Below, piece after piece: positions 2,780 to 14,655 of a stretch of 64,000 bases of DNA. The first letter of the stretch is position 1. Every line of letters begins with the position of its first letter. The stretch comes from Spirochaetia bacterium. Lineage in GTDB: Bacteria > Spirochaetota > Spirochaetia > SZUA-6 > Bin103. Below the pieces are notes generated by a model. It was not told the origin of the DNA. It ran no database searches and was given only the letters and a program-made list of their open reading frames with translations. The stretch covers positions 1,056,001-1,120,000 of the forward strand of contig CBDAOI010000003.1 in assembly GCA_965198005.1 (NCBI GenBank), in the 5' to 3' direction. Both the position numbers and the translations under genes were made by a program.

Positions 2780-2807
2780 TTGACGTTTTCTCATGAGACC
2801 GTATTAT
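2780..2807 (+). promoter_or_regulatory. Putative sigma70 promoter for the fliM-flhF operon
   Basis: TTGACG(2780-2785)-N16-TATTAT(2802-2807) in an AT-rich divergent intergenic region. Confidence 0.55.
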
Positions 2808-2918
2808 AGAACACTACGTTGCCCGCCCCACGCGGCGGGGACGGGGTCGCTGTTCGTGGGAGCCGCTTTCCCGCCCTGGAAGTTGGCCGAGGCGAACCGC
2901 GAAAACTGGGGGAAATGC

Positions 2919-3914
2919 GTGGACGTTATCAGTCAACGCCGCACGGCGCCGCCGCGGCGCACCGGCGACGCCGGCATCGGTCAGCCGGCTGTCAGGCCGC
3001 TCAGCCTGGGGCGGCCGGAGCACCTGTCGCCCGAACAGATCGCCGGACTGTCGGCGGTGCACGAGGGCTTCGCCCGGCGCGCCGGCGAGGCGCTGTCGGC
3101 GTACCTGCGCAGCCCGGTCCGACTCCACCTGAAGACCGTTCAGCAGCTCTCGTACGAGGAGTGCGCCCGGGCCCTGCCGGATCCCGGCGCCCTGGCCGTG
3201 GTGGAGTTGGAGCCGTTCGCCGGCACGGCGCTGCTGGCGGTCGATCAACCGTTCGCGTTTGCGGCGATAGACCGGCTGCTTGGCGGCCGGGGCGACTCTG
3301 CGGCGCCCGCGCGCGGCCTGAGCGACATCGAGCGCGCGGTAATGGAGAACATCGTGCACCGGCTGATGGCGCCTCTGGCCGCGGCGTGGCAGCCGGTACG
3401 GGCGCTCCGGCCGCGGTTGAGCCGCATCGAAACCGCCCCGGAACAGGCCCGGATCGCCGCGCCGCGGGAGGCCGTGGTGCGGCTGACGTTCGACCTCCGC
3501 CTGCGCGCGGCCGGGACCATGCATTTCCTGATTCCTCTTTCGGCCCTGGCCCCGGTCAGGAGCAGGCTCGGACCACGGTCGTGCGGGCACGCCGAGCGCC
3601 GGGAGGAGCGCGGCGCCGAAGCCGGCGGCCGCGGCGGCGGCCGCGCGCGCTCGCAACGGGCGACGCTCGGTGAGTTGCTGCGGGCGGCGCCGTTGCCGGT
3701 GACCGTGGAGCTCGGGGGCGCCTGCGTACCGTTGCGCGCCATCCTCGAGCTGACGGCGGGCGACGTGCTGCCGCTGGACCGGGTGCGGCCGGGCGACGAG
3801 CTGGCGGTTAAGGTAGGCGGCAGAACGAAGTTCATGGGGCGGCCGGGCGTGGTAGGCGGCCGGCTCGCCGTCCAGATCCGGGCACCGGCGCGGGTCGGGG
3901 GCGGGCCGGAATGA
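2919..3914 (+). CDS. fliM: Flagellar motor switch protein FliM (divergent; CheY-binding N-terminus degenerate)
   Basis: RP..LS.EQI..L...HE.FAR, IDRLLGGRG, LSDIER and a C-terminal SpoA domain. Start taken at GTG 2919 (MDVISQ). Confidence 0.85.
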   Translation: MDVISQRRTAPPRRTGDAGIGQPAVRPLSLGRPEHLSPEQIAGLSAVHEGFARRAGEALSAYLRSPVRLHLKTVQQLSYEECARALPDPGALAVVELEPFAGTALLAVDQPFAFAAIDRLLGGRGDSAAPARGLSDIERAVMENIVHRLMAPLAAAWQPVRALRPRLSRIETAPEQARIAAPREAVVRLTFDLRLRAAGTMHFLIPLSALAPVRSRLGPRSCGHAERREERGAEAGGRGGGRARSQRATLGELLRAAPLPVTVELGGACVPLRAILELTAGDVLPLDRVRPGDELAVKVGGRTKFMGRPGVVGGRLAVQIRAPARVGGGPE

Positions 3915-4273
3915 GTGCCGCCGACGTGCAGCCCATGCAGCTTGCCAGCCTGCAGCCGGAGGCCGAAACCGGCCACCACCGGACGCCGGCCGACATCGGG
4001 TTCCTGAAGGACGTGGACCTGCGGATCACGGTGGAGCTCGGCGGCACCACGCGGACGATCGGGGAGATTCTGGGCCTCGGCACCGGGTCGGTGATCGAGC
4101 TCGACAAGCTGGCGGGCGAGCCGGTCGAGATCCTGGTCAACCGCACGCCGATCGCCCGCGGCGAGGTGGTGGTGATCGACGACGCGTATGGCGTGCGGGT
4201 CACGGAGATCATGGCCGGCGTGCGGATGGGCGACGATGGAGCGGGCAACGGCTCCCGCGTCGAGGCGGGCTAG
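3911..4273 (+). CDS. fliN: Flagellar switch protein FliN (SpoA domain only)
   Basis: DV.LRITVELG, GSVIELDKLAGEPVEILVN, ARGEVVVIDD.YGVRVTEI. Confidence 0.92.
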   Translation: MSAADVQPMQLASLQPEAETGHHRTPADIGFLKDVDLRITVELGGTTRTIGEILGLGTGSVIELDKLAGEPVEILVNRTPIARGEVVVIDDAYGVRVTEIMAGVRMGDDGAGNGSRVEAG

Positions 4274-5003
4274 CGGCCTGCGCACCGTGGGTCGCCGCAG
4301 GCCGGCACGCGCACCCGCGGCACTGGTACTGCTGCTCATCGGGAGCGCGGTGCTTGGGCTGATCGGTCCGCTCGCCGCCCAGGAGCCGCAGCCGTCCACG
4401 CCGGAGCCGGCGGCGGGCGCCGCCGATCCCGCGCGCGACCTGACCCCGCTGCCCGGAACCGGGGAGTCGGCCGCGCTGGCGGTTGCACGCGCTCCCGCCG
4501 GCGGCGCGGCCCCGTCCACCTGGGACTTCGTGCGCATGGTGCTGGTGCTGGCCGCGGTGCTGGCCGCCATCTATCTGGTTTTCCTGTTGGTCAAGCGCAG
4601 CACGTCGGGACGGGTGCGGGAGAACGACCTGATCACCCTGGTCGGCTCGCGCACGCTCGGCGGCGGGCGCCACCTGCACTTGGTGCGGGTGGGTACGTCC
4701 TACTACCTGGTGGGGGCGGCGGACGAGTCGGTCAACCTGATTGCCGAGATTACCGACGGTGAGAGCCTCGACACGCTGAAGCTCGAGCTGTCCACGGCAA
4801 CGGTCGCGGGGCGGCGCAGTTTTGCGGACGTGCTCGGCGAGGCGTTCGGCGGCATCGGCGCGGGCGGCAGCCGGGGCCACGGTCACGGCGTCCTGCTTTC
4901 CGGCGGCGAGGCCGCCGCCGGAAGCGTGCTCGGCCAGCGGCGCCGCGGGGTCCAGAACGTGCACCGTCGACCCGGGCGGGGAGGGGCCGATGCCGGCAGT
5001 TGA
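4236..5003 (+). CDS. fliO: Flagellar biogenesis protein FliO/FliZ
   Basis: TM segment 'FVRMVLVLAAVLAAIYLVFLLVK' followed by 'LGGGRHLHLVRVG..YYLVG....VNLIAEI'; lies between fliN and fliP. Start uncertain. Confidence 0.8.
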   Translation: MERATAPASRRASGLRTVGRRRPARAPAALVLLLIGSAVLGLIGPLAAQEPQPSTPEPAAGAADPARDLTPLPGTGESAALAVARAPAGGAAPSTWDFVRMVLVLAAVLAAIYLVFLLVKRSTSGRVRENDLITLVGSRTLGGGRHLHLVRVGTSYYLVGAADESVNLIAEITDGESLDTLKLELSTATVAGRRSFADVLGEAFGGIGAGGSRGHGHGVLLSGGEAAAGSVLGQRRRGVQNVHRRPGRGGADAGS

Positions 5004-5793
5004 CCGCCGCTGGTGCGCCGGCGGCCTGCTCGCGCTGCTGGTGCTGGGCCAGCTCCTGGCACCGGCCCCGGCGGCCGCCCAGGAGCTGGTGGACGCGCTC
5101 GCCGACGGTGTGGGGTTTCCGTTCGTCGATCTGTCGGTGCGCGACGCCCAGTCGAACCGGGAAGTGCTGCTGTCGCTGCAGTTCCTGCTGCTGCTGGCGG
5201 TGGTGTCGCTGGCGCCTTCCCTGATCGTCCTGATGACCTCGTTCGTGCGGCTGGCGATCGTATTCGACTTGGTCAAGCGGGCCTTGTCGCTGCAGCACGT
5301 GCCGCCGCACCAGGTGCTGATGGGCATCGCCCTGTTTCTCACCCTGTTCATCATGTGGCCCACGCTCGACACGGTGAACCGCACCGCGCTGCAGCCGTTC
5401 GCGCGCGGCGAACTGAACACCGAACAGCTCCTGCAGCGGGCCGAGACGCCGGTGCGGGAGTTCATGTTTCGCCAGCTCGGGGACGACGCCGACAACATCC
5501 GTCTGTTCATGCGCATGCGCGACCTGCCGAAGCCGGCCACGCGCGCCGACGTGCCCACCTACATCCTGATCCCCGCCTTCATCCTGCACGAGCTGACGGT
5601 GGCCTTCAAGATCGGGATTCTGATCTTCGTGCCGTTCGTGATCATCGACCTGGTGGTGGCCACGGCACTGATTTCGATGGGCATCATCGTGCTCCCGCCG
5701 ATGCTGATCTCGCTGCCGTTCAAGCTGATCCTGTTCGTGCTGGTGGACGGCTGGGACCTGATCACGATGCAGGTGATCGCGAGCTTTCGCTGA
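4990..5793 (+). CDS. fliP: Flagellar export gate protein FliP
   Basis: MTSFVR, PPHQVL, LIPAFILHEL..AFKIG, LPFKLILFVLVDGW. Confidence 0.96.
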   Translation: MPAVDRRWCAGGLLALLVLGQLLAPAPAAAQELVDALADGVGFPFVDLSVRDAQSNREVLLSLQFLLLLAVVSLAPSLIVLMTSFVRLAIVFDLVKRALSLQHVPPHQVLMGIALFLTLFIMWPTLDTVNRTALQPFARGELNTEQLLQRAETPVREFMFRQLGDDADNIRLFMRMRDLPKPATRADVPTYILIPAFILHELTVAFKIGILIFVPFVIIDLVVATALISMGIIVLPPMLISLPFKLILFVLVDGWDLITMQVIASFR

Positions 5794-6074
5794 TGGACGG
5801 GGCCATGACAATGGGCGCGGCGGTGACTCTGGCGCGCGACGGCGTGCTGCAGTTGCTGATGATCGCGGGACCGATCCTCGGGGTGAGCGTGATCGTCGGC
5901 CTGGTGATCTCGATTCTCCAGGCGACCACCTCGATTCAGGAGCAGACGCTCACCTTCGTCCCCAAGATCCTCGCCCTGCTCGGCGTGGTATTCCTGCTCG
6001 CGCCCTGGCTCGGCGGTTCGATGGTGGAGTTTACTCGCCGCCTGTACGCGGCGATTCCGGGGATGGCGCTGTGA
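5793..6074 (+). CDS. fliQ: Flagellar export gate protein FliQ
   Basis: GLVISILQATTSIQEQTLTFVPK. Start at ATG 5793 or 5805. Confidence 0.95.
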   Translation: MDGAMTMGAAVTLARDGVLQLLMIAGPILGVSVIVGLVISILQATTSIQEQTLTFVPKILALLGVVFLLAPWLGGSMVEFTRRLYAAIPGMAL

Positions 6075-6916
6075 CCGCGGGCGGACTGCTGGACGGGCTG
6101 GTGACGCTCGACGACTGGTACGTGGGCCTGCTGGTATTTGCCCGGGTGCTCGCCATGATCCAGGTGGCGCCGCTGTTCTCGTCGTCCGCCGTCCCCCAGA
6201 TCGCCAAGTTCGGTCTGGCGCTGTTCCTTACGGTGATTCTGCTGCCGTGGGTGCTGGAGCGCGGCTATCCGGTGCCCGCGTCCGGCGTGCAGTATGCACT
6301 GCTGCTGCTCGGTGAGGCGCTGGTGGGCCTGCTGATCGGGTTTCTGATCTACCTGGCGGTCGCGGCGTTTCAGGTGGCGGGGCAGTTCCTTTCGCTGCAG
6401 CTCGGGTTCGACTCGGCCGAGGTGTTCGACCCGTTCAGCCGCAGCTCGCTGCCGTCGCTCGGCCAGTTGTTCCACCTGCTCGCGCTGCTGGTGTTCCTGA
6501 GCGTCGGCGGGGTGCACCGGTTCATGCTGACCGGCCTGCTCGGTTCGTTCCAGGCGCTGCGTGCCGGCGATCTGGCCGCGCCGGCGCTGCTGGGCACGCT
6601 GTCGCGCGGTCTGGGCACCCTGTTCGCGACCGCGTTCGCCATCGCGTTTCCGGTGTTCGGCGCGCTGGCGCTGGTGTCGGTCGCCCTGGCGCTGTTGGCC
6701 AAGGCGGCGCCGCAGATGAACCTGCTCATTCTGGGCGTGCCGATCGCGACGGCCGCCGGGCTGGTGATCCTGGTGCTGGCGCTGCCGGTGCTGCTGGAGG
6801 CGGTGGCGGCGGTCATCGACGGAGCGTTCGTGGAGTTGCGCCAACTGCTCGCGCGGCTGGCCGCCGAGCCCCGGCCGGCGCTGGATTCGGCCGCGGTCAG
6901 GGGAGGAGCGCTGTGA
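6071..6916 (+). CDS. fliR: Flagellar export gate protein FliR
   Basis: FARV..MI.VAPLFS, AFQVAGQ...QLGF, KAAPQMN. Confidence 0.93.
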   Translation: MTAGGLLDGLVTLDDWYVGLLVFARVLAMIQVAPLFSSSAVPQIAKFGLALFLTVILLPWVLERGYPVPASGVQYALLLLGEALVGLLIGFLIYLAVAAFQVAGQFLSLQLGFDSAEVFDPFSRSSLPSLGQLFHLLALLVFLSVGGVHRFMLTGLLGSFQALRAGDLAAPALLGTLSRGLGTLFATAFAIAFPVFGALALVSVALALLAKAAPQMNLLILGVPIATAAGLVILVLALPVLLEAVAAVIDGAFVELRQLLARLAAEPRPALDSAAVRGGAL

Positions 6917-7992
6917 GCGGCTGGTCCGGCGCGGAACACGAGGGGCGTACCGAGGCCCCCAGCGCCGCCCGACTGCGGGCTGCCCGCAGCGCGGGAGTGG
7001 TGCCGCGCACCACCGAGCTGCCGGCGGCGATGACGCTGGTGGGCGCGGTCGCGGCCCTGGCGGTGCTGGGACGTTCGGCGGTGGCCACGGTGAGGGAGAT
7101 GCTGCGCGTGTTCTTGATGCAGGCTGCCACGCCCGAGGTGGCGGCCACGCCGGCGAGCGCCGAGCTGGCATTCTCCTACCTGCTCCGTCTGGTGCTGCCC
7201 GTGGCCGGGATCGGCTTGGTGGCCGCGCTGGCCGGGAATCTGGTGCAGGTCCGGCCGCGGCTCGCGGTCAGACCGGTTGCGCCCGATTGGCACCGGATCG
7301 TTCCCCGGTTCCTCAGTTACTTCAGGCGTGCGCTGTTTTCCGCCGAGGCGGCCTACCGGCTGGCCGCCACCGCGCTCAAGGTGCTGGTCATCGCGGCGCT
7401 CGCGGGCGCGACCATTCACGCCGTGCTCGAGCGGCTGGCCGGTAGCGTGCGGATGCCGCTCGAAGCCGCCGGCGCACTGTTAGCGGCGGCGGCGCTGCGC
7501 ATGGCCGGCAGCGTGGCGCTGCTGCTGCTGGCCCTGGCGATTGCCGACTATCTGGTGCAGCGCCGGCGCCACCGCCGGGCACTGCGGATGACCCCGCGCG
7601 AGGTGCGCGAGGAGCGCCGCCGGCAGGAGCCCGATCCCCAGGTGCGCCGCCGGCTGCGCGCCCGCATGCGCGAGTTGCTGTCGCGCGACCTGGCGCGGCA
7701 GGTGGCGGGTGCGGCGGCGGTCATCACCGGCGGCGCGCGCTGGGCGGTGGCGGTGCGCTGGACCGGGCACGCCCTGGCGGCGCCGGTGGTGGTGGCCAAG
7801 GGGCTGGACGAGGCCGCCGGCAGGATCCGCGCGGCCGCCGCCGCCCACCCGGTGCCGCTGGTGGAGCGCCCGCAGTTGGCGCGGGTGCTGGCCGAGTACG
7901 TCGAGGTCGGCGACCCGGTCCCCGCCGCGTACTTCCGGCCGCTGGCGGAGGCACTGGCGCGGACCGCACCGGGGGAGGTGCCGGATGGCTGA
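6913..7992 (+). CDS. flhB: Flagellar export switch protein FlhB, lacking the NPTH autocleavage motif
   Basis: RTEAPS..RL, LRMT.REVREE...E.DPQV, APVVVAKG.D, PLVE.P.LAR. The expected VITNPTH reads VITGGAR. Confidence 0.9.
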   Translation: MSGWSGAEHEGRTEAPSAARLRAARSAGVVPRTTELPAAMTLVGAVAALAVLGRSAVATVREMLRVFLMQAATPEVAATPASAELAFSYLLRLVLPVAGIGLVAALAGNLVQVRPRLAVRPVAPDWHRIVPRFLSYFRRALFSAEAAYRLAATALKVLVIAALAGATIHAVLERLAGSVRMPLEAAGALLAAAALRMAGSVALLLLALAIADYLVQRRRHRRALRMTPREVREERRRQEPDPQVRRRLRARMRELLSRDLARQVAGAAAVITGGARWAVAVRWTGHALAAPVVVAKGLDEAAGRIRAAAAAHPVPLVERPQLARVLAEYVEVGDPVPAAYFRPLAEALARTAPGEVPDG

Positions 7993-9997
7993 CGCAAAGA
8001 CCGCCGGCCCGTACGCCTTCAGCGGCTGGCAGCGGCGCAGCGACGTGCTGGTGGCCCTGTTCGTGATCGTGTTCATCCTGATGATGTTGATTCCGCTGCC
8101 GGCAGTGGTGCTCGACCTGTTCATGGCGCTCAACATCTGTCTCGGCCTGCTGGTCATTCTGATCGTGCTCTACACCCGGAGTCCGTTGGAGTTCACCATC
8201 TTTCCGACGCTGCTGCTGCTGGCCACGGTGTTCGGGCTGGCTCTCAACGTCTCGTCGACGCGGCTGATTCTGGCACAGGGCGCGGCCTTCGAGGGTCGCA
8301 TCGTGCGCGCGTTCGGAAGCTTCGTCGTGGGCGCTCCGGGTACCGCCGGCTACGTCATCGGCGCGATCATCTTCACCATGATCATGGCCGTGCAGTTCGT
8401 GGTCATCACCAAGGGCGCCACGCGGGTAGCCGAGGTGGCGGCCCGCTTCACCCTGGACGCCCTTCCCGGCAAGCAGATGGCGATCGACGCGGAGTACAAC
8501 TCCGGCCTGCTGTCGGAAGCGGAAGCGACGCGGCGCAAGAACGAGCTGCGGCGCGAGACCGACTTCTACGGCGCCATGGACGGCGCCTCGAAGTTCGTGT
8601 CCGGGAACGTGCGCGTCGGGGTTCTGATCACGCTGATCAACCTGGTCGGCGGGCTGATCGTGGGCGTCGCGGTGCGCTCCGAGCCCCTGGCCGCGGCGGC
8701 GGGAACCTACGTGTCGCTGACCATCGGCGACGGCCTGGTAACGCAGCTCCCGGCGCTGCTGATTTCCACCGCCACCGGGATCATCGTGACGCGCGCCGTC
8801 TCCGATGCCTCGTTCGGCCGCGACCTGGCGCGCCAGCTTGCGCTGCACCATCGGCCGTTCTACATCGCCGCGGGTTTCCTCGCGGTGCTTGCCCTGCTGC
8901 CCGGCTTTCCCGTGCACGTGTTGCTGCCGCTGGCCGCGGTGCTCGGCTGGTGCGGCCATGCCATCGGCCGCCGGCAGGCGGGCGCCGCCGGCGCCGAACC
9001 ACCAGCCGCCACCGAGCCGGGCCCTGCCGCGCGGGCGGCGTCGCCGCCAGCCGCCGCCGCGCCGGTGGCCCCCGTGTCACCGGTGGCGCCGCCCGATCCG
9101 CTGGCGGTCGAGTTGGGGTATGGACTGGTGCCGCTGGCCGAGGAGGAGGGCGGTACCGACCTGTTGCAGCGGCTGGCCGCCGTGCGCCGCGCCGCGGCGC
9201 AGGAACGCGGCCTGGTGGTGCCGCCGGTTCGGATTGCCGACAACCTGAACCTGCGGCCCACCGAGTATGCCGTCAAGATCCGCGGCGTCGAGGTGGAGCG
9301 CGACCGCCTGCGCGGCGGCGCGCAGGAGCTGGCTGCCCGCCTGACACGGATCATCGAGCGGCGCGCGGCCGACCTGCTCGGTCGAGAAGACGTGAAGTCG
9401 ATGCTCGAGGCGCTCCGGGGGGACTATCCGACCGTGGTCGAAGAAGCCACGGCGACGCTGTCGGTCGGCGAGATTCAGCGCGTGCTGCAGGCGCTGTTGG
9501 CAGAGGGGGTGTCGATACGCGATCTGGTGGCTATTCTCGAGGCGCTCGGCGACTACGCGCCCGAACGGCGGGACACCGGGTTTCTGGTGGAACGGGTGCG
9601 CCGGACACTGGCGCGGCAGATTTCGCAGCAGCACGCGGGCACGGACGGGGTACTGCACGTCCTGACGCTGGCGCCGGACCTGGAACGGCGGGTGATCGAA
9701 GCCGCCGCGGAGGGCGCCGACGAAGGTCCGAACGGCGGTGCGGCGGCCGGCGGCCGCTCGGCGGAGTGGCGGCGGCACTGGGTCGGCGCCCTGGCGGAGG
9801 CGGTCGCGGAGGCCGAGCGGCGGGGGCACCCGCCGGTGGTGTTGTGCCCCGCGCCGGCACGGGCGTGGGTGCGGGCCGCCACCCGGCGCGAGCTCCCGCA
9901 CCTGGTGTGCCTGGCGGACACCGAGCTGGCCGAGGTCGCCGTGACAGCGCTGGCGGAAGTGCAGCCGGAGCGGCCGGCGGGAGAGGGCGGGCGGTGA
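7985..9997 (+). CDS. flhA: Flagellar export protein FlhA with an internal deletion in the cytoplasmic domain
   Basis: RVAEVAARFTLDALPGKQMAIDA, DFYGAMDGASKFV, LTIGDGLV.QLPAL, ELGYGLVPL, LLAEGVSIRDL. ATG 7985 overlaps the flhB end. Confidence 0.95.
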   Translation: MADAKTAGPYAFSGWQRRSDVLVALFVIVFILMMLIPLPAVVLDLFMALNICLGLLVILIVLYTRSPLEFTIFPTLLLLATVFGLALNVSSTRLILAQGAAFEGRIVRAFGSFVVGAPGTAGYVIGAIIFTMIMAVQFVVITKGATRVAEVAARFTLDALPGKQMAIDAEYNSGLLSEAEATRRKNELRRETDFYGAMDGASKFVSGNVRVGVLITLINLVGGLIVGVAVRSEPLAAAAGTYVSLTIGDGLVTQLPALLISTATGIIVTRAVSDASFGRDLARQLALHHRPFYIAAGFLAVLALLPGFPVHVLLPLAAVLGWCGHAIGRRQAGAAGAEPPAATEPGPAARAASPPAAAAPVAPVSPVAPPDPLAVELGYGLVPLAEEEGGTDLLQRLAAVRRAAAQERGLVVPPVRIADNLNLRPTEYAVKIRGVEVERDRLRGGAQELAARLTRIIERRAADLLGREDVKSMLEALRGDYPTVVEEATATLSVGEIQRVLQALLAEGVSIRDLVAILEALGDYAPERRDTGFLVERVRRTLARQISQQHAGTDGVLHVLTLAPDLERRVIEAAAEGADEGPNGGAAAGGRSAEWRRHWVGALAEAVAEAERRGHPPVVLCPAPARAWVRAATRRELPHLVCLADTELAEVAVTALAEVQPERPAGEGGR

Positions 9998-11295
9998 CCA
10001 CCGCGTACTTCAAGGTGCAGGGCACGACCCCGCGTGAGGCGCTCGCCAACATGAAGCGGCTGTATGGACCGGACGCCCGCATACACTCTCACCGCGTGGT
10101 CAAGATCGGAGGACTGTTCGGCCTGTTCAAGCGCGACGGAGTAGAGATTACCGGGTTCGTGGATCCGCCGGCGGCGTACGCCGCGGCGACCGCGTCGGAA
10201 CCGGCCCCGGCCGACGCGGAGCCGGCCGCGGCCCAGCAGCGGTTGGCGTACGAGCAGCGCCGGATCCTGGAGCAGACGCCCTCCGGGGCCGGTCTGCGGC
10301 GGCTGGTAGACGAGGTGGCGGCACTGCGCGCCCGGCTCGACCGCTCGTTGCCGGAGACCGCCGAGGTGACCGTACGGCTCGGTGAGCATCCGTGTCTGCT
10401 CGCATTGGACGCACTGCTGGTGCGCAACGACTTCGCCCCCGGCTACCGCGCGCGGCTGCTCGATCGGGTACGGTCGGAGTTCACCCTGCAGCAGCTTGAG
10501 GACCGGGCCGCCGTGCACCGCTACGTGGCCCTGCAGATCGGCCGTGCGCTGTCGGTGGCGCAACCCTTGACCGGGACCGACGACACCGCCGCCGGCGGGC
10601 CGCTGGTGTGCATCGTGGTCGGTCCGACCGGCGTCGGCAAGACCACCACAATCGCCAAGCTGGCGGCGATCCACGGCCTCGGCAACGGCGCCGGCGAACG
10701 CCGGAACGTGCACATCGTGACGATCGACAACTATCGCATCGGCGCCCGCCAGCAGATCGAGACCTACGGCGAGATCATGCGCATTCCGGTCACCACGGCC
10801 GAAACCGCGGAGGATCTCAAGAAGGCGGTGGCGCTCGGGCGCGACCTGGACCTCATCTTCGTCGACACGGTCGGCCGCAGTCCGGCCGACTACGCCCGCC
10901 TAGGCGAAATGCGCGCCGTGCTGGAGGCAGCCGGCCGGCGCAGCACGACCCAGCTTGCCGTGAGCGCCACCACCAAGCATCCGGACCTCGAGCAGATCCT
11001 GCGCCAGTTCGAGCCGTTCGGATACGACACCGTGATCGTCACCAAGCTCGACGAGACCGCCGCCATCGGCAACGTGCTGTCCGTGCTGGCGGAGCGCCGC
11101 AAGCCGGTCTCCTACCTGTGCGACGGGCAGGTGGTGCCGCAGGACATCGCACGGGCATCGATCGGACGGTTGCTGGTCAGCCTGGAGGGGTTCGAGCTCG
11201 AGCGTGCGGCGCTGGAGCGTGAGTTCGGGACCTTCGGGGAGGCGCCGGCGCCGTCCGCCGGGAAAGAGCGGATGCCGATCTTGACCTCGCCGTGA
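9994..11295 (+). CDS. flhF: SRP-family GTPase FlhF
   Basis: GPTGVGKTTTIAKLAA, D.YRIGA, DTVG, TKLDE, GQ.VPQD. GTG 9994 overlaps the flhA stop. Confidence 0.93.
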   Translation: MTTAYFKVQGTTPREALANMKRLYGPDARIHSHRVVKIGGLFGLFKRDGVEITGFVDPPAAYAAATASEPAPADAEPAAAQQRLAYEQRRILEQTPSGAGLRRLVDEVAALRARLDRSLPETAEVTVRLGEHPCLLALDALLVRNDFAPGYRARLLDRVRSEFTLQQLEDRAAVHRYVALQIGRALSVAQPLTGTDDTAAGGPLVCIVVGPTGVGKTTTIAKLAAIHGLGNGAGERRNVHIVTIDNYRIGARQQIETYGEIMRIPVTTAETAEDLKKAVALGRDLDLIFVDTVGRSPADYARLGEMRAVLEAAGRRSTTQLAVSATTKHPDLEQILRQFEPFGYDTVIVTKLDETAAIGNVLSVLAERRKPVSYLCDGQVVPQDIARASIGRLLVSLEGFELERAALEREFGTFGEAPAPSAGKERMPILTSP

Positions 11296-11309
11296 TTTAT
11301 ACCTACGCT
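11281..11309 (+). promoter_or_regulatory. Putative internal sigma70 promoter for fliA
   Basis: TTGACC(11281-11286)-N17-TACGCT(11304-11309) across the flhF 3' end. Confidence 0.45.
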
Positions 11310-11343
11310 CTCGGAAATTGGGTTGTGTCCGTGGGGCGATGCT

Positions 11344-12168
11344 ATGGCGCGTGACAGCCGGGAGCTAGGCGTGGCAGATCCGGTCCCGGAGGCCGCTGAC
11401 GCCGTTCCGGAAGAAGAGCTGTGGAGGCGCTACCGGCAGCGCCGGGATCCCAAGATACGCGACCACTTCATCCGCCAGTACGCGCCGTTGGTCAAGTACG
11501 TGGCCGGCAAGATGGCGGTGGGCATGCCCGGCAACGTGGAGTTCGACGACTTGGTGGGCTACGGCGTGTTCGGGCTGTTCGACGCCATCAAGAAGTTCGA
11601 TCCGACCAAGCACGTCAAGTTCAAGACCTACGCCGTGACGCGGATTCGCGGAGCGATCTTCGACGAGTTGCGCACCATCGACTGGGTGCCGCGCTCGGTG
11701 CGCCAGAAGGCGCGCGAGGTCGAGGAAGCCGTGCGCACCCTGGAAGCGAAGCTCGGACGCGCCGCCACCGACGCCGAGATCGCCAAGAAGATGAACATGC
11801 CCCCGGACGAGTTCCAGCAGCTCATGCTCAAGATCAGCGGCACCTCGATCCTGTCGCTCAGCGACGTGTGGTACAGCGGTGACGACAATGACCGCATCTC
11901 GGTGGCGGAGAGTATCGAGTCTCCGACCAGCCTCAATCCCGATTCGATCGTGGAGAAGGATGAGATCAAGCGGGTGATCGTCGAGGCAATCGGCGAACTG
12001 TCGGAGAAGGAGCAGAAGGTGCTGGTGCTCTACTATTACGAGGATCTCACGCTGAAGGAGATCGGTGAAGTGCTGGAAGTCACCGAGTCGAGAGTCTCCC
12101 AACTCCACACCAAGGCGATCATCCGACTGCGCGCCAAGCTGACCAATCTGAAACGTGGTGTCGCCTGA
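11344..12168 (+). CDS. fliA: RNA polymerase sigma-28 factor (FliA/WhiG family)
   Basis: [61 protein letters not shown]. Confidence 0.96.
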
Positions 12169-12222: not shown

Positions 12223-12250
12223 TAATGCGCAGGGACGGAATGGTCGATAT
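12223..12250 (+). promoter_or_regulatory. Candidate sigma28-type promoter
   Basis: TAAT-N16-GTCGATAT versus consensus TAAA-N15/16-GCCGATAA/T. Confidence 0.4.
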
Positions 12251-12255
12251 GCAGA

Positions 12256-13581
12256 GTGATGCATTATTCCCGGTACCGCACCCTGGAACGGCAGCAGGTA
12301 GTGCCCCGCAACGGGCACAGCCGATTCGCGCGCGCAGCGCCCCGTGCGCTCCGTAACCAGCAGCCGAGCACGCGCCGCCCGTCCGCCCGCCGGACCCCGA
12401 CTGCGTCCCGCTCCCCGGTCGCACTGCTCGGCGCGACGGCGCGGTCCATGGCCCGCGGCCGGAGCAGCGTGCGCGAGCTGGTGCGCAAGGTCCACGCCGC
12501 CGCGGCCGCACTGTTGTCCCGCATGGTAATCCGGCCGATGCATGCCACCGCCACGGTGCTGCTGGTGGTGGCTGCCCTGACCGCAACCACTCTGGCCCAG
12601 ATCGCCCCCAGCGAGCCCAGCCCACGGCTGTCGCCGCAGGTGTTGACGGACGGACTGGCGACCCCGGCGACGGTGCACTTGGCCGCGGCAGTCCCGGGCA
12701 CGGGCGCAGCGCCGGGTTCGGTCGTGGCATCGTCGGCCGGCGCAGCGACCGGAATCGCTACCGTGGCGACCGCCGGCGCCGCGTTGCCTGCCGAGCCGGC
12801 GAACGCGGCGAACCCGGCGAACCCGGCGGTGTCGACCGCCGCCCAGGGCCTCCCGCCAATCCAGCGGGTTCACCCGCACCAGGTGGTGAGCGGCGATACG
12901 CTGTCGGGGCTGGCGGCGCGGTTCGGGATTACGCTCGATACGATCATCAGTTTCAATGACATCAAGCGTGCCCGCGACCTGCGCGTGGGACGCGAGCTGA
13001 CCATCCCCGCCGCATCGGGAGTGCGCTACGAGGTGCGCCGGGGTGACAGTCTGAGCGGCATCGCGGTGCGCCACGGCGTGGATCTCAGCACCGTGCTCGC
13101 GGCCAATGCGGTGCAGGGCGAGTTGATCACGCCGGGGCAGGTCCTGATGATCCCCGGCGGCCGCCTGGGTGAGAACGAGCTCAACCGCGTGCTCGGACGG
13201 CTGTTCGTGTGGCCGGCCCGCGGGCGACTGACCTCCGGCTACGGTTACCGCAACGATCCGTTCACCGGAATCCGCAAGTTTCACAACGGCATCGACATCG
13301 CCAACGCCCAGGACACCGCGGTGGTAACGGCGATGGGTGGCAGCGTGGCGATGCTGGGTTACAACGGAAACTACGGGCGCTACCTGATCATCCGCCATCA
13401 GGATGGCTTCCAGACTCTGTACGCGCATCTGCACAAGATAGTCGTGGAACGCGGCCAACGGGTGCGTCAGGGACAGCGCGTCGGTTCGATGGGGACCACG
13501 GGATACAGCACCGCCAGTCATCTGCATTTTTCCATCTTCCAGCATGGCCGCCACGTCAATCCGGTGAAGCATCTCGACTGA
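12256..13581 (+). CDS. LysM x2 + M23 peptidase (true start may be later, e.g. ATG 12523)
   Basis: Two GD(T/S)LS.(L/I)A LysM repeats; M23 motifs HNGID, YAHL, HLHF. Confidence 0.9.
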   Translation: MMHYSRYRTLERQQVVPRNGHSRFARAAPRALRNQQPSTRRPSARRTPTASRSPVALLGATARSMARGRSSVRELVRKVHAAAAALLSRMVIRPMHATATVLLVVAALTATTLAQIAPSEPSPRLSPQVLTDGLATPATVHLAAAVPGTGAAPGSVVASSAGAATGIATVATAGAALPAEPANAANPANPAVSTAAQGLPPIQRVHPHQVVSGDTLSGLAARFGITLDTIISFNDIKRARDLRVGRELTIPAASGVRYEVRRGDSLSGIAVRHGVDLSTVLAANAVQGELITPGQVLMIPGGRLGENELNRVLGRLFVWPARGRLTSGYGYRNDPFTGIRKFHNGIDIANAQDTAVVTAMGGSVAMLGYNGNYGRYLIIRHQDGFQTLYAHLHKIVVERGQRVRQGQRVGSMGTTGYSTASHLHFSIFQHGRHVNPVKHLD

Positions 13582-13610
13582 GTAAGCCGCACCCCGCGAA
13601 CGTATCTTCC

Positions 13611-13638
13611 CCCATTCTGCACAATTGTGCAGAATGGG
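13611..13638. repeat. Perfect 28-bp palindrome
   Basis: CCCATTCTGCACAA|TTGTGCAGAATGGG is its own reverse complement. Confidence 0.95.
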
Positions 13639-13650
13639 TGGCGGATCGGA

Positions 13651-14655
13651 ATGAGGACTGACGCAAGGCAGCGCCGGCGCGGCCGCGGGAGGCGGTGGCT
13701 GGCGATTCTGGCCGCCGGTTGCGTGGCCGCACTGGTCGTTCAGGCTACCGTGATCGGGCCCACGCGCACGGCGCCGTACGATGAAGGGGAGTACCTGTTG
13801 TTCCCGGGCGATTGGCTGGCCACGACCCGGAACGCCTACCCGCAGGTCGGGGCCGGGGGATTTGCCGCGAGCGCGCACGGGGTCGGCGGCAGCGCCGAGG
13901 GAATCGACCCGCCACCGTTGTCGCTCGCCAGCAAGTACTACCGGGTGCGGCGCGGCGACACCTTTACCGGCATCGCTGCCCGGTTCGGGTTGACCCTGGA
14001 CACGATCGCCTCGTTTAACCGGGACGCCGGGGTCGGGGTGCATCAGCTCGCCATCGGCGAGTTGGTCAAGATTCCGAACCAGGATGGGATCTACCTGCCG
14101 GTAGGCGACGATCTGGCGCAACTCAGCCTGGAACAGGGAGTGTTGCCGGAGACGGTGCTGGTAGCCAACGGCGTCGATCTCGACGAGTTGACGCCGGCCA
14201 CGGAATTGTTCTTTCCCGGCGTCCAGCACTCCGGGCACGAGCTGGCCATGGTGACCGGGGCCGCATTCACGCGTCCGACCGCCGGCTGGGTGAGTTCCCG
14301 GTTCGGTCCGCGGATCGACCCGTTCACCGGCACCCGGAGTTTCCACCACGGGGTCGACCTTGCGGCGCCGCATGGGACCGCGGTGCGCGCCACCCAGGAT
14401 GGCAAGGTAGCCGCCACCGGCCACAGCCGGGTGTTGGGCAAGTACATCATCATCACCCACTACGTGGCCGGGTACTCCTCACTGTACGGCCACCTGCATC
14501 GGGTCTACGTGCGCCGCTCCGAACGGGTGCGCGGCGGTGAGCCGATCGGCACCGTCGGCGCTACCGGGCAGGTGACCGGTCCCCACCTGCACTTCGAACT
14601 ACGGCGCGGCAAGATCCGGCTCGACCCCGCGCAGTTCATCTCCGGTCTCCGCTGA
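13651..14655 (+). CDS. LysM + M23 peptidase
   Basis: N-terminal TM, GDTFTGIA LysM, HHGVD, YGHL, GPHLHFE. Confidence 0.9.
   Translation: MRTDARQRRRGRGRRWLAILAAGCVAALVVQATVIGPTRTAPYDEGEYLLFPGDWLATTRNAYPQVGAGGFAASAHGVGGSAEGIDPPPLSLASKYYRVRRGDTFTGIAARFGLTLDTIASFNRDAGVGVHQLAIGELVKIPNQDGIYLPVGDDLAQLSLEQGVLPETVLVANGVDLDELTPATELFFPGVQHSGHELAMVTGAAFTRPTAGWVSSRFGPRIDPFTGTRSFHHGVDLAAPHGTAVRATQDGKVAATGHSRVLGKYIIITHYVAGYSSLYGHLHRVYVRRSERVRGGEPIGTVGATGQVTGPHLHFELRRGKIRLDPAQFISGLR

Follow-up and report, generated by a model that had tools for sequence, protein, structure and literature searches.

The stretch analysed here, referred to as the window, comprises 64,000 nucleotides of contig CBDAOI010000003.1 (positions 1,056,001 to 1,120,000 of the forward strand) in the assembly GCA_965198005.1 of a Spirochaetia bacterium. 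It carries a cluster of genes of the flagellar type III export gate, among them flhB. Self-cleavage of FlhB/SctU proteins, which takes place in a conserved NP(T/E)H tetrapeptide, is treated as near-universal in type III secretion; in the window FlhB the tetrapeptide has been removed naturally. The two features concerned are the following.

Positions 6913-7992, plus strand: flhB, coding 359 amino acids (aa); GTG start overlapping the fliR stop; identified by Pfam PF01312, matches to PDB chains and an AlphaFold2 model with a mean predicted local distance difference test (pLDDT) score of 92.7
Positions 7729-7740, plus strand: Gly-Gly-Ala-Arg (GGC GGC GCG CGC), replacing the NP(T/E)H autocleavage tetrapeptide; FlhB residues 273-276 in a gap-free PDB alignment

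The altered cleavage site of FlhB

The window FlhB matches Bac_export_2 (PF01312) with an E-value of 9.7e-78 and 262.2 bits against a cut-off of 24.4, its residues 11-349 covering profile positions 2-333 of 335. Nucleotides 7711-7755 read GCG GCG GCG GTC ATC ACC GGC GGC GCG CGC TGG GCG GTG GCG GTG and are translated as AAAVITGGARWAVAV. FlhB chains of the PDB are matched by phmmer with E-values from 3.4e-42 to 1.8e-25. In these alignments the segment vitGGARwava pairs without gaps with vitNPEHfava of 12du_A, a 372-aa FlhB (E 3.4e-42), and with vtNPTHysva (36hu_K1) and vtNPEHfsva (8z5s_x) of two other full-length FlhBs. The preliminary description of this DNA had placed GGAR at residues 273-276 in register with the usual tetrapeptide, and both the DNA reading and the gap-free pairing confirm it. 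The window FlhB was also aligned with 110 cluster representatives, 107 of which lie outside its lineage. Among these 107 the scissile columns hold Asn in 97% and Pro in 99% of the sequences, while 38 of the 46 positions conserved at a level of at least 85% in the family are retained by the window protein. Its sole Asn is N109, in the membrane domain, and the entire protein contains no Asn-Pro (count 0), which excludes an intact cleavage site elsewhere, be it the displaced NPT or NPE that the preliminary description had considered.

Other hallmarks of the cytoplasmic domain are preserved. Residue D212 aligns with D208 of Salmonella FlhB in the PDB alignment and most conserved C-domain residues are also kept. 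In FlhB-C, the Ala-Pro and Leu-Ala..Leu positions survive as A290, P291, L322, A323 and L326, which we take to correspond to the early-substrate docking patch of Evans et al. 2013, the residue numbers being presumed. A four-residue FlhB patch is mentioned, without residue numbers, in PMC7771051.

The AlphaFold2 model was built on a 111-sequence alignment (mean pLDDT 92.7). It features four long membrane helices plus a linker helix, with helices predicted at residues 35-71, 80-112, 144-176 and 183-223, followed by an alpha/beta cytoplasmic domain with predicted strands at 269-272, 277-282, 292-298 and 316-318 and interspersed helices. Residues 273-276 are modelled as a four-residue turn that joins strands 269-272 and 277-282 in the usual hairpin shape (pLDDT of the block 97). 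Replacement of Asn-Pro by Gly-Gly makes self-cutting through asparagine cyclisation impossible. The window FlhB would consequently stay one polypeptide, with a plain turn in place of the NPTH loop. No gene for a free FlhB-C of the FlhX/YlqH type, which might complement such a protein as the preliminary description had envisaged, turned up in a PF01312 search of the own assembly (4.89 Mb, 4 contigs, 90% complete), where the window FlhB gives the only match. A second FlhB-type match was also not found in nine further genomes of the same genus with a protein query.

The distribution of the motif was followed through the entire family, represented by 24 genomes that fall into genus g1 (the genome of the window and 10 others) and genus g2 (13 genomes). 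The comparison set consists of 17 genomes of flagellated relatives, spread over seven further families in the same order, with G037 as control. Asn-Pro is missing at the site in all ten full-length FlhBs of g1. The tetrapeptide is GGAR in the window, HGGR in G004, HGER in G003 and G009, DGRR in G010, DPAR in G007, AAAR in G008 and DAAR in G001, G005 and G006. The length of the loop is constant and its fourth residue is Arg in 10/10 proteins, with G/H/D/A, G/P/A and A/G/E/R found at positions 1, 2 and 3, respectively. Sixteen flagellated relatives could be read (flhB of the 17th, G033, is split over two contigs): 15 have NPTH and one NPVH. The possibility raised beforehand, that such variants are common in flagellated spirochaetes, is therefore not borne out by these relatives. 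Sister genus g2 goes further: FlhB stops short of the motif, near residue 260, in 3/13 genomes (G015, G011 and G012; 261-280 aa), and no FlhB was found in the remaining 10/13. For two of the truncated genes the similarity continues for about 10 residues beyond the TGA. In a maximum-likelihood FlhB tree, from which fragment G026 was excluded, g1 and g2 each form one clade with support 100/100, so a single loss of the site suffices for g1.

The preliminary description had argued that four substituted codons are no single sequencing slip. This holds well beyond the window, the site having been lost with other tetrapeptides in nine other g1 species. Sampled words of the 9.5-kb operon are moreover present at 70-99% in eight sequencing runs from three studies. 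The two observations together rule out an assembly error.

A wider search covered 1.84 billion cluster representatives, of which the best 150 matches were examined. Asn-Pro occupies the site in 143 of them (NPTH in 103, the others NPxH, NPTE and similar). Three of the seven exceptions belong to the lineage (P0002 DQAG, P0005 HGRR and P0062 DAAR) and three come from elsewhere (P0081 SPTR, P0104 GPSG and P0120 AVGQ). The last one, P0017, is a 623-aa protein that carries the FlhB N-domain only, at residues 294-551, behind an uncharacterised amino-terminal half. The earlier statement that no natural full-length FlhB lacking the motif had been well described stands as far as literature goes: phrase searches found no paper on one, their sole match being a laboratory deletion in HrcU. 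The window protein is nevertheless not unique, in view of the ten g1 FlhBs and the other database proteins.

A reduced flagellar gene set

The flhB gene lies in the order fliM-fliN-fliO-fliP-fliQ-fliR-flhB-flhA-flhF-sigma28, with start/stop overlaps at the junctions fliM/fliN, fliQ/fliR, fliR/flhB, flhB/flhA and flhA/flhF. The other genes of the operon are listed below with their Pfam E-values.

Positions 2793-3914, plus strand: fliM; FliM E 1e-45, FliMN_C E 4.9e-20; start uncertain (ATG 2793 or GTG 2919)
Positions 3911-4273, plus strand: fliN, short, with the C-terminal SpoA-type domain only; FliMN_C E 3.6e-24; ATG overlapping the fliM stop
Positions 4188-5003, plus strand: fliO; FliO E 8.7e-12; start uncertain
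Positions 4822-5793, plus strand: fliP; FliP E 1e-69; start uncertain, domain at residues 124-317 of the frame
Positions 5805-6074, plus strand: fliQ; Bac_export_3 E 1.6e-27
Positions 6071-6916, plus strand: fliR; Bac_export_1 E 5.7e-57; GTG overlapping the fliQ stop
Positions 7985-9997, plus strand: flhA; FHIPEP E 1.4e-207; ATG 8 nucleotides inside the flhB end
Positions 9994-11295, plus strand: flhF, coding a GTPase of the signal recognition particle (SRP) type; SRP54 E 1.2e-35 and synteny with flhF of G037; GTG overlapping the flhA stop, no flhG following
Positions 11296-12168, plus strand: sigma-28 (FliA/WhiG-type) sigma factor; Sigma70 r2/r3/r4; open frame given, start codon not fixed

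The operon is preceded on the opposite strand by a gene for a thiamine-pyrophosphate enzyme and followed by two LysM-M23 peptidase genes and secA. The tandem peptidase genes (12226-14655, plus strand) occupy a slot between the sigma factor gene and secA that is common to flagellated and non-flagellated relatives. FliP is 66.5% identical to its homologue of G037, FliP and FliQ together ranging from 66 to 68%. FlhA is matched by the FHIPEP family in two stretches and has an Ala/Pro-rich low-complexity insert (roughly residues 370-440) between its membrane part and its cytoplasmic domain. FliM has no recognisable N-terminal CheY-binding peptide. Two ring genes are found away from the operon in the own genome: fliF at C3:939162-940838, at a distance of 116 kb, and fliG at C4:1467820-1468878, on another contig. 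The former is still at the operon head beside hslU in six other g1 members, while some 8.5-10 kb separate the latter from genes for V-type ATPase subunits in the four g1 genomes tested. The own FliG is orthologous to the operon copy of G037 (62% identity, against 29% to the second G037 paralogue). FliF is present in the own genome, in 9/10 other g1 genomes and in 3/13 of g2, and FliG in 4/4 of the g1 genomes tested.

The genes coding exported flagellar components are largely missing from the family. Flagellin (PF00669) was detected in 1/24 family genomes, the outlier G002, versus 17/17 genomes of the other families, and the rod/hook domain Flg_bbr_C (PF06429) likewise in G002 only (1/24 versus 17/17). 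The hook ruler FliK (PF02120) was found in 0/24 family genomes and in 16/17 of the others. Deeper profile tests were made on four g1 genomes (own, G001, G003 and G010, three of them complete-looking), with G037 matching each profile as a control. Flg_bb_rod (PF00460), FliE (PF02049) and CheW gave 0/4, as did FliD (PF07195) and the ATPase FliI (TIGR01026) above their cut-offs. The best matches to TIGR01026 reach 215-231 bits (own 215.7) against a cut-off of 379.5 and are F/V-ATPase paralogues only. MotA, MotB, FliL, FliH and FliJ of G037 had no tblastn match at 1e-4 in the own genome (no profile search was made for these), and neither flgD nor flgE of G037 had a tblastn match there. With the FliM peptide and CheW both missing, chemotaxis input to the C ring seems to have been lost too.

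Comparison of the G037 operon by tblastn with the own genome and with 20-kb stretches of g1 defines the ancestral locus as hslV-hslU-fliF-fliMNOPQR-flhBAF-sigma-M23-secA. This order is seen in six contiguous g1 loci, and G006 has the same genes over two contigs. In G003, flgB-flgC-fliE and fliG-fliH-fliI-fliJ-fliK-flgD-flgE-motA-motB-fliL of G037 are replaced by only about 250-350 bp; the g1 locus also lacks flhG and the neighbouring chemotaxis genes in this comparison. The comparison identifies the losses as deletions in place. Two g2 loci (G011 and G012) retain fliF (partial match), fliOPQR, the flhB N-part, flhA and the sigma gene, with no tblastn match for fliM, fliN and flhF.

Throughout the order the sigma-28 factor keeps an identity of 68-81%. 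A gene for its anti-sigma factor FlgM is found in the own genome at G000:C3:180086-180382 (minus strand; 34 bits, above the Pfam cut-off). Sigma-28 and FlgM-like genes are each present in 13/13 g2 genomes, including the 10 without a FlhB or FliF match. Since the pair is kept in genomes without a gate, it must control something non-flagellar here, and the idea that the gate is kept for FlgM export is correspondingly weakened and unlikely. A loose promoter scan of the own genome for a sigma-28 regulon gave three matches, none with the usual spacing, and was dropped.

Selection on flhB and interpretation of the locus

FlhB has diverged faster in g1 than among flagellated relatives. Its identity is 52-66% (median 58%) among the seven flagellated families, 37-92% (median 47%) within g1 and 26-43% between g1 and the flagellated relatives, while the own SecA shares 77-81% identity with that of nine g1 genomes and 60-67% with that of the other families. 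Path lengths in the FlhB tree amount to about 2.1 changes per site within g1 versus about 0.7 across the seven families, a roughly threefold difference. The ratio of nonsynonymous to synonymous rates (dN/dS) of FlhB, calculated by the NG86 method, is 0.28-0.59 in 9 g1 pairs (0.73 in the most distant pair) versus 0.09-0.20 in four flagellated pairs; the subdomain that follows the motif has 0.39-1.03 and 0.07-0.23, respectively. In the same g1 pairs the other relic genes have 0.17-0.74 and secA 0.11-0.19. Note that these FlhB values come from frames with trimmed starts, stop-to-stop frames that reach into fliR having given inflated ratios of 0.7-1.0 in some pairs that were not used, and that the fliM/fliN rows for G001, G005, G006 and G007 derive from the same frame and are not independent. 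Strong codon bias (GC content at third codon positions, GC3, of about 0.9) would inflate dN/dS, not deflate it. The flhB gene is thus under relaxed but real purifying selection.

These data are probably best explained by an FlhB that cannot be cleaved and is retained for its structural role in a pared-down flagellar type III export gate, the host being a high-GC spirochaete lineage that is associated with sponges and has given up building flagella. The kept set would comprise the MS ring (FliF), the C ring (FliG, FliM and FliN) and the gate (FliO, FliP, FliQ and FliR along with FlhB and FlhA), plus FlhF and sigma-28, and the set that has gone would comprise the axial proteins (FliE, rod, hook, filament and cap), the hook ruler FliK, the ATPase FliI and CheW. 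In such a sequence of events ruler and cargo would be lost first and selection on the cleavage site would lapse; the tetrapeptide would then drift into seven forms within g1, and g2 would delete the whole post-cleavage subdomain or lose the apparatus, FlhB being retained under weakened purifying selection as a part of the gate structure. In canonical systems the FlhB cytoplasmic domain sits under FlhA. The membrane part wraps FliPQR, and cleavage between Asn269 and Pro270 is required for the FliK-triggered change to late substrates (PMC7771051; PMC7911332). By analogy, the hairpins of the window FlhB may be placed around FliPQR and its C-domain under FlhA. A switch is of no use where the ruler and both early and late flagellar substrates are missing, and loss of the site is then to be expected; deletion of the subdomain in g2 agrees with this reasoning. 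The surprise is that the ring-and-gate set is intact and selected in ten divergent species. The set may export a new periplasmic cargo, form an FlhF-linked polar scaffold or have a nanotube-type role.

Several points weigh against this explanation. That the window FlhB stays uncleaved is read from its sequence and predicted fold. Gene absence was established with hidden Markov model (HMM) profiles and tblastn on metagenome-assembled genomes, the own one 90% complete; axial proteins that have diverged strongly could escape such searches. A dN/dS below 1 says nothing on which function is selected. The invariant Arg at the fourth position hints at a new constraint on the loop that pure drift would not produce, with the qualifier that the closest database relative, P0002 (62% identical), reads DQAG. 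Genome G002, which is filed in g1, codes flagellins, FlgC- and FlgK-like proteins and a free FlhB-CC, and neither FliF nor a full-length FlhB turned up there. The assembly has 510 contigs and a completeness of 81%, and its SecA is only 67% identical. G002 is either a flagellated basal member, in which case the genus is not uniformly non-flagellate, or a mixed bin. Its FlhB-CC (YlqH-like) domain is coded by a free open frame of 121 codons at C262:509-874, on a contig of 65.5% GC; the other G002 contigs concerned are C183, C212, C64 and C79.

The first reading of the sequence implied a flagellated spirochaete with an alternative switch or one stuck in rod/hook mode. A working flagellum whose FlhB switches uncleaved, or with a separate FlhB-CC protein making up for it, could draw on the free FlhB-CC (YlqH/FlhX-like) genes of five flagellated relatives and of G002. 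It is contradicted by the gene content, since flagellin, rod, hook, FliK, FliE, FliD, FliI and CheW were not found in the own genome, the ancestral locus leaves no room for the missing genes, and neither the own genome nor, with a protein query, the nine other g1 genomes yield a second PF01312 match; such a flagellum is thus extremely improbable. The locus needs re-framing, not as a flagellum without a switch but as a flagellar relic whose switch lapsed.

Whether this relic still functions is a separate matter. The whole cluster, flhB included, might be dead and on its way out, the motif loss being one of many neutral changes. Stepwise loss in the family agrees with this (three g2 genomes lack the C ring, FlhF and FlhB-CC, and ten have lost all but sigma-28/FlgM), as do the approximately threefold greater change of FlhB within one genus than across seven flagellated families and its dN/dS of two to four times that of flagellated kin. 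High GC also makes long open frames cheap, many spurious ones being found in the window. The ratio is nevertheless below 1 in every g1 pair and for every relic gene, in spite of a GC3 bias that would raise it, and not one frameshift or internal stop occurs in ten species whose SecA proteins are only 77-81% identical. Gene set and order are constant in the six contiguous loci, with the same genes in G006 and the start/stop overlaps kept, and both the identity of FliP and FliQ to their flagellated homologues and the 38 conserved positions of FlhB speak for maintained products. Four RNA libraries of one study labelled as sponge metagenome contain short contigs with 0-1 mismatches on fliM, fliN, fliP, fliQ, fliR, flhA and the sigma gene, some of them 100% identical. 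These are a weak hint of transcription of operon parts, their depth being low and DNA carry-over possible; for flhB the bins 6821-7454 are without cover and the motif region has only chimeric fragments, which permits no conclusion on its expression. A dead cluster is accordingly quite improbable.

Alternatively, loss of cleavage may itself have been selected, the uncleavable FlhB holding the gate in one specificity state for a new, non-flagellar periplasmic cargo. The Arg shared by all ten g1 proteins at position 4 and the invariant loop length would fit such a lock, as would retention of A290, P291, L322, A323 and L326, presumably the docking patch but residues that may persist merely as fold core. 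There are precedents in the relic flagellar system of Lysobacter enzymogenes OH11, which exports non-flagellar proteins (PMC7688988), and in the reduced export that persists without the ATPase complex (PMC7911332). Positions 1-3, however, vary freely as drift predicts, the Arg is missing from the DQAG of the nearest relative, g2 manages without any of the subdomain and no candidate cargo was identified. Selection for a lock is therefore unlikely. Retention of FlhB as a structural gate part leaves room for a more specific and more doubtful proposal, namely that the retained set (FliF, FliG, FliM, FliN, FliOPQR, single-chain FlhB, FlhA and FlhF) makes up a working, proton-driven gate without filament, rod and ATPase, which uncleavable FlhB fixes in one specificity state, and that this gate exports non-flagellar proteins to the periplasm of a sponge symbiont or serves there as a polar scaffold placed by FlhF. 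If this were true, flagellum and injectisome would be joined by a third class of type III machine, at an early stage.

Comparison with known type III systems

The family presents an ordered series of losses: exported substrates and ruler, then the cleavage site, then the post-cleavage subdomain and then the gate. This series separates two jobs of FlhB, that of structural gate subunit, which is selected, from that of switch, which is dispensable without anything to switch. The minimal set of MS ring, C ring and gate preserved in ten divergent species makes an export core without flagellum testable in defined genes. Literature searches on flagella of sponge or coral spirochaetes and on flagellar gene retention found nothing on this lineage.

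The window FlhB is a full-length homologue of canonical FlhB/SctU proteins (Salmonella and Vibrio FlhB, 12du_A; YscU, EscU and SpaS), with the same domain layout and the same fliPQR-flhB-flhA gene order. It differs from them in having Gly-Gly in place of Asn-Pro and in a genome with no FliK partner and no flagellar substrates found. Its FlhB-C, predicted to be single-chain with an intact fold, resembles engineered FlhB N269A. YscU N263A and EscU N262A are further non-cleaving mutants of this kind. Engineered non-cleaving FlhB supports rod/hook-type export and C-ring assembly in the laboratory; with N269A, C rings and hooks are still assembled while filament proteins are not exported (PMC7771051; PMC7911332). 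The window change is, unlike these mutations, natural, affects the whole tetrapeptide, is fixed genus-wide and occurs where there is no hook to over-extend.

The nearest parallels in gene content are relic systems. Buchnera retains rod and hook genes. The Buchnera basal bodies (PMC8109811) and the system of Lysobacter enzymogenes OH11 (PMC7688988; PMC7277350) have, like the window lineage, no functional flagellin gene and have kept gate genes, which are expressed and for which a new role has been proposed. Lysobacter has kept FliI and hook-assembly proteins, with FlgD secreted (PMC7688988), that were not found in the own genome; the axial proteins and the ATPase are all missing in the window lineage, unlike in both relic systems. 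PMC7688988 contains no mention of "cleavage" or "NPTH".

Gate genes that act, or are proposed to act, apart from the flagellum are also known from the CORE platform FliOPQR-FlhBA for nanotubes (PMC6456723), all six genes of which are present here, and from the "hat-like" inner-membrane complex that is related to the type III secretion system of flagella (bioRxiv 10.1101/2021.09.03.458937). Both are cases of moonlighting in flagellated species with a canonical FlhB, whereas the lineage of the window has kept, together with the gate, the genes of the MS ring, the C ring and FlhF.

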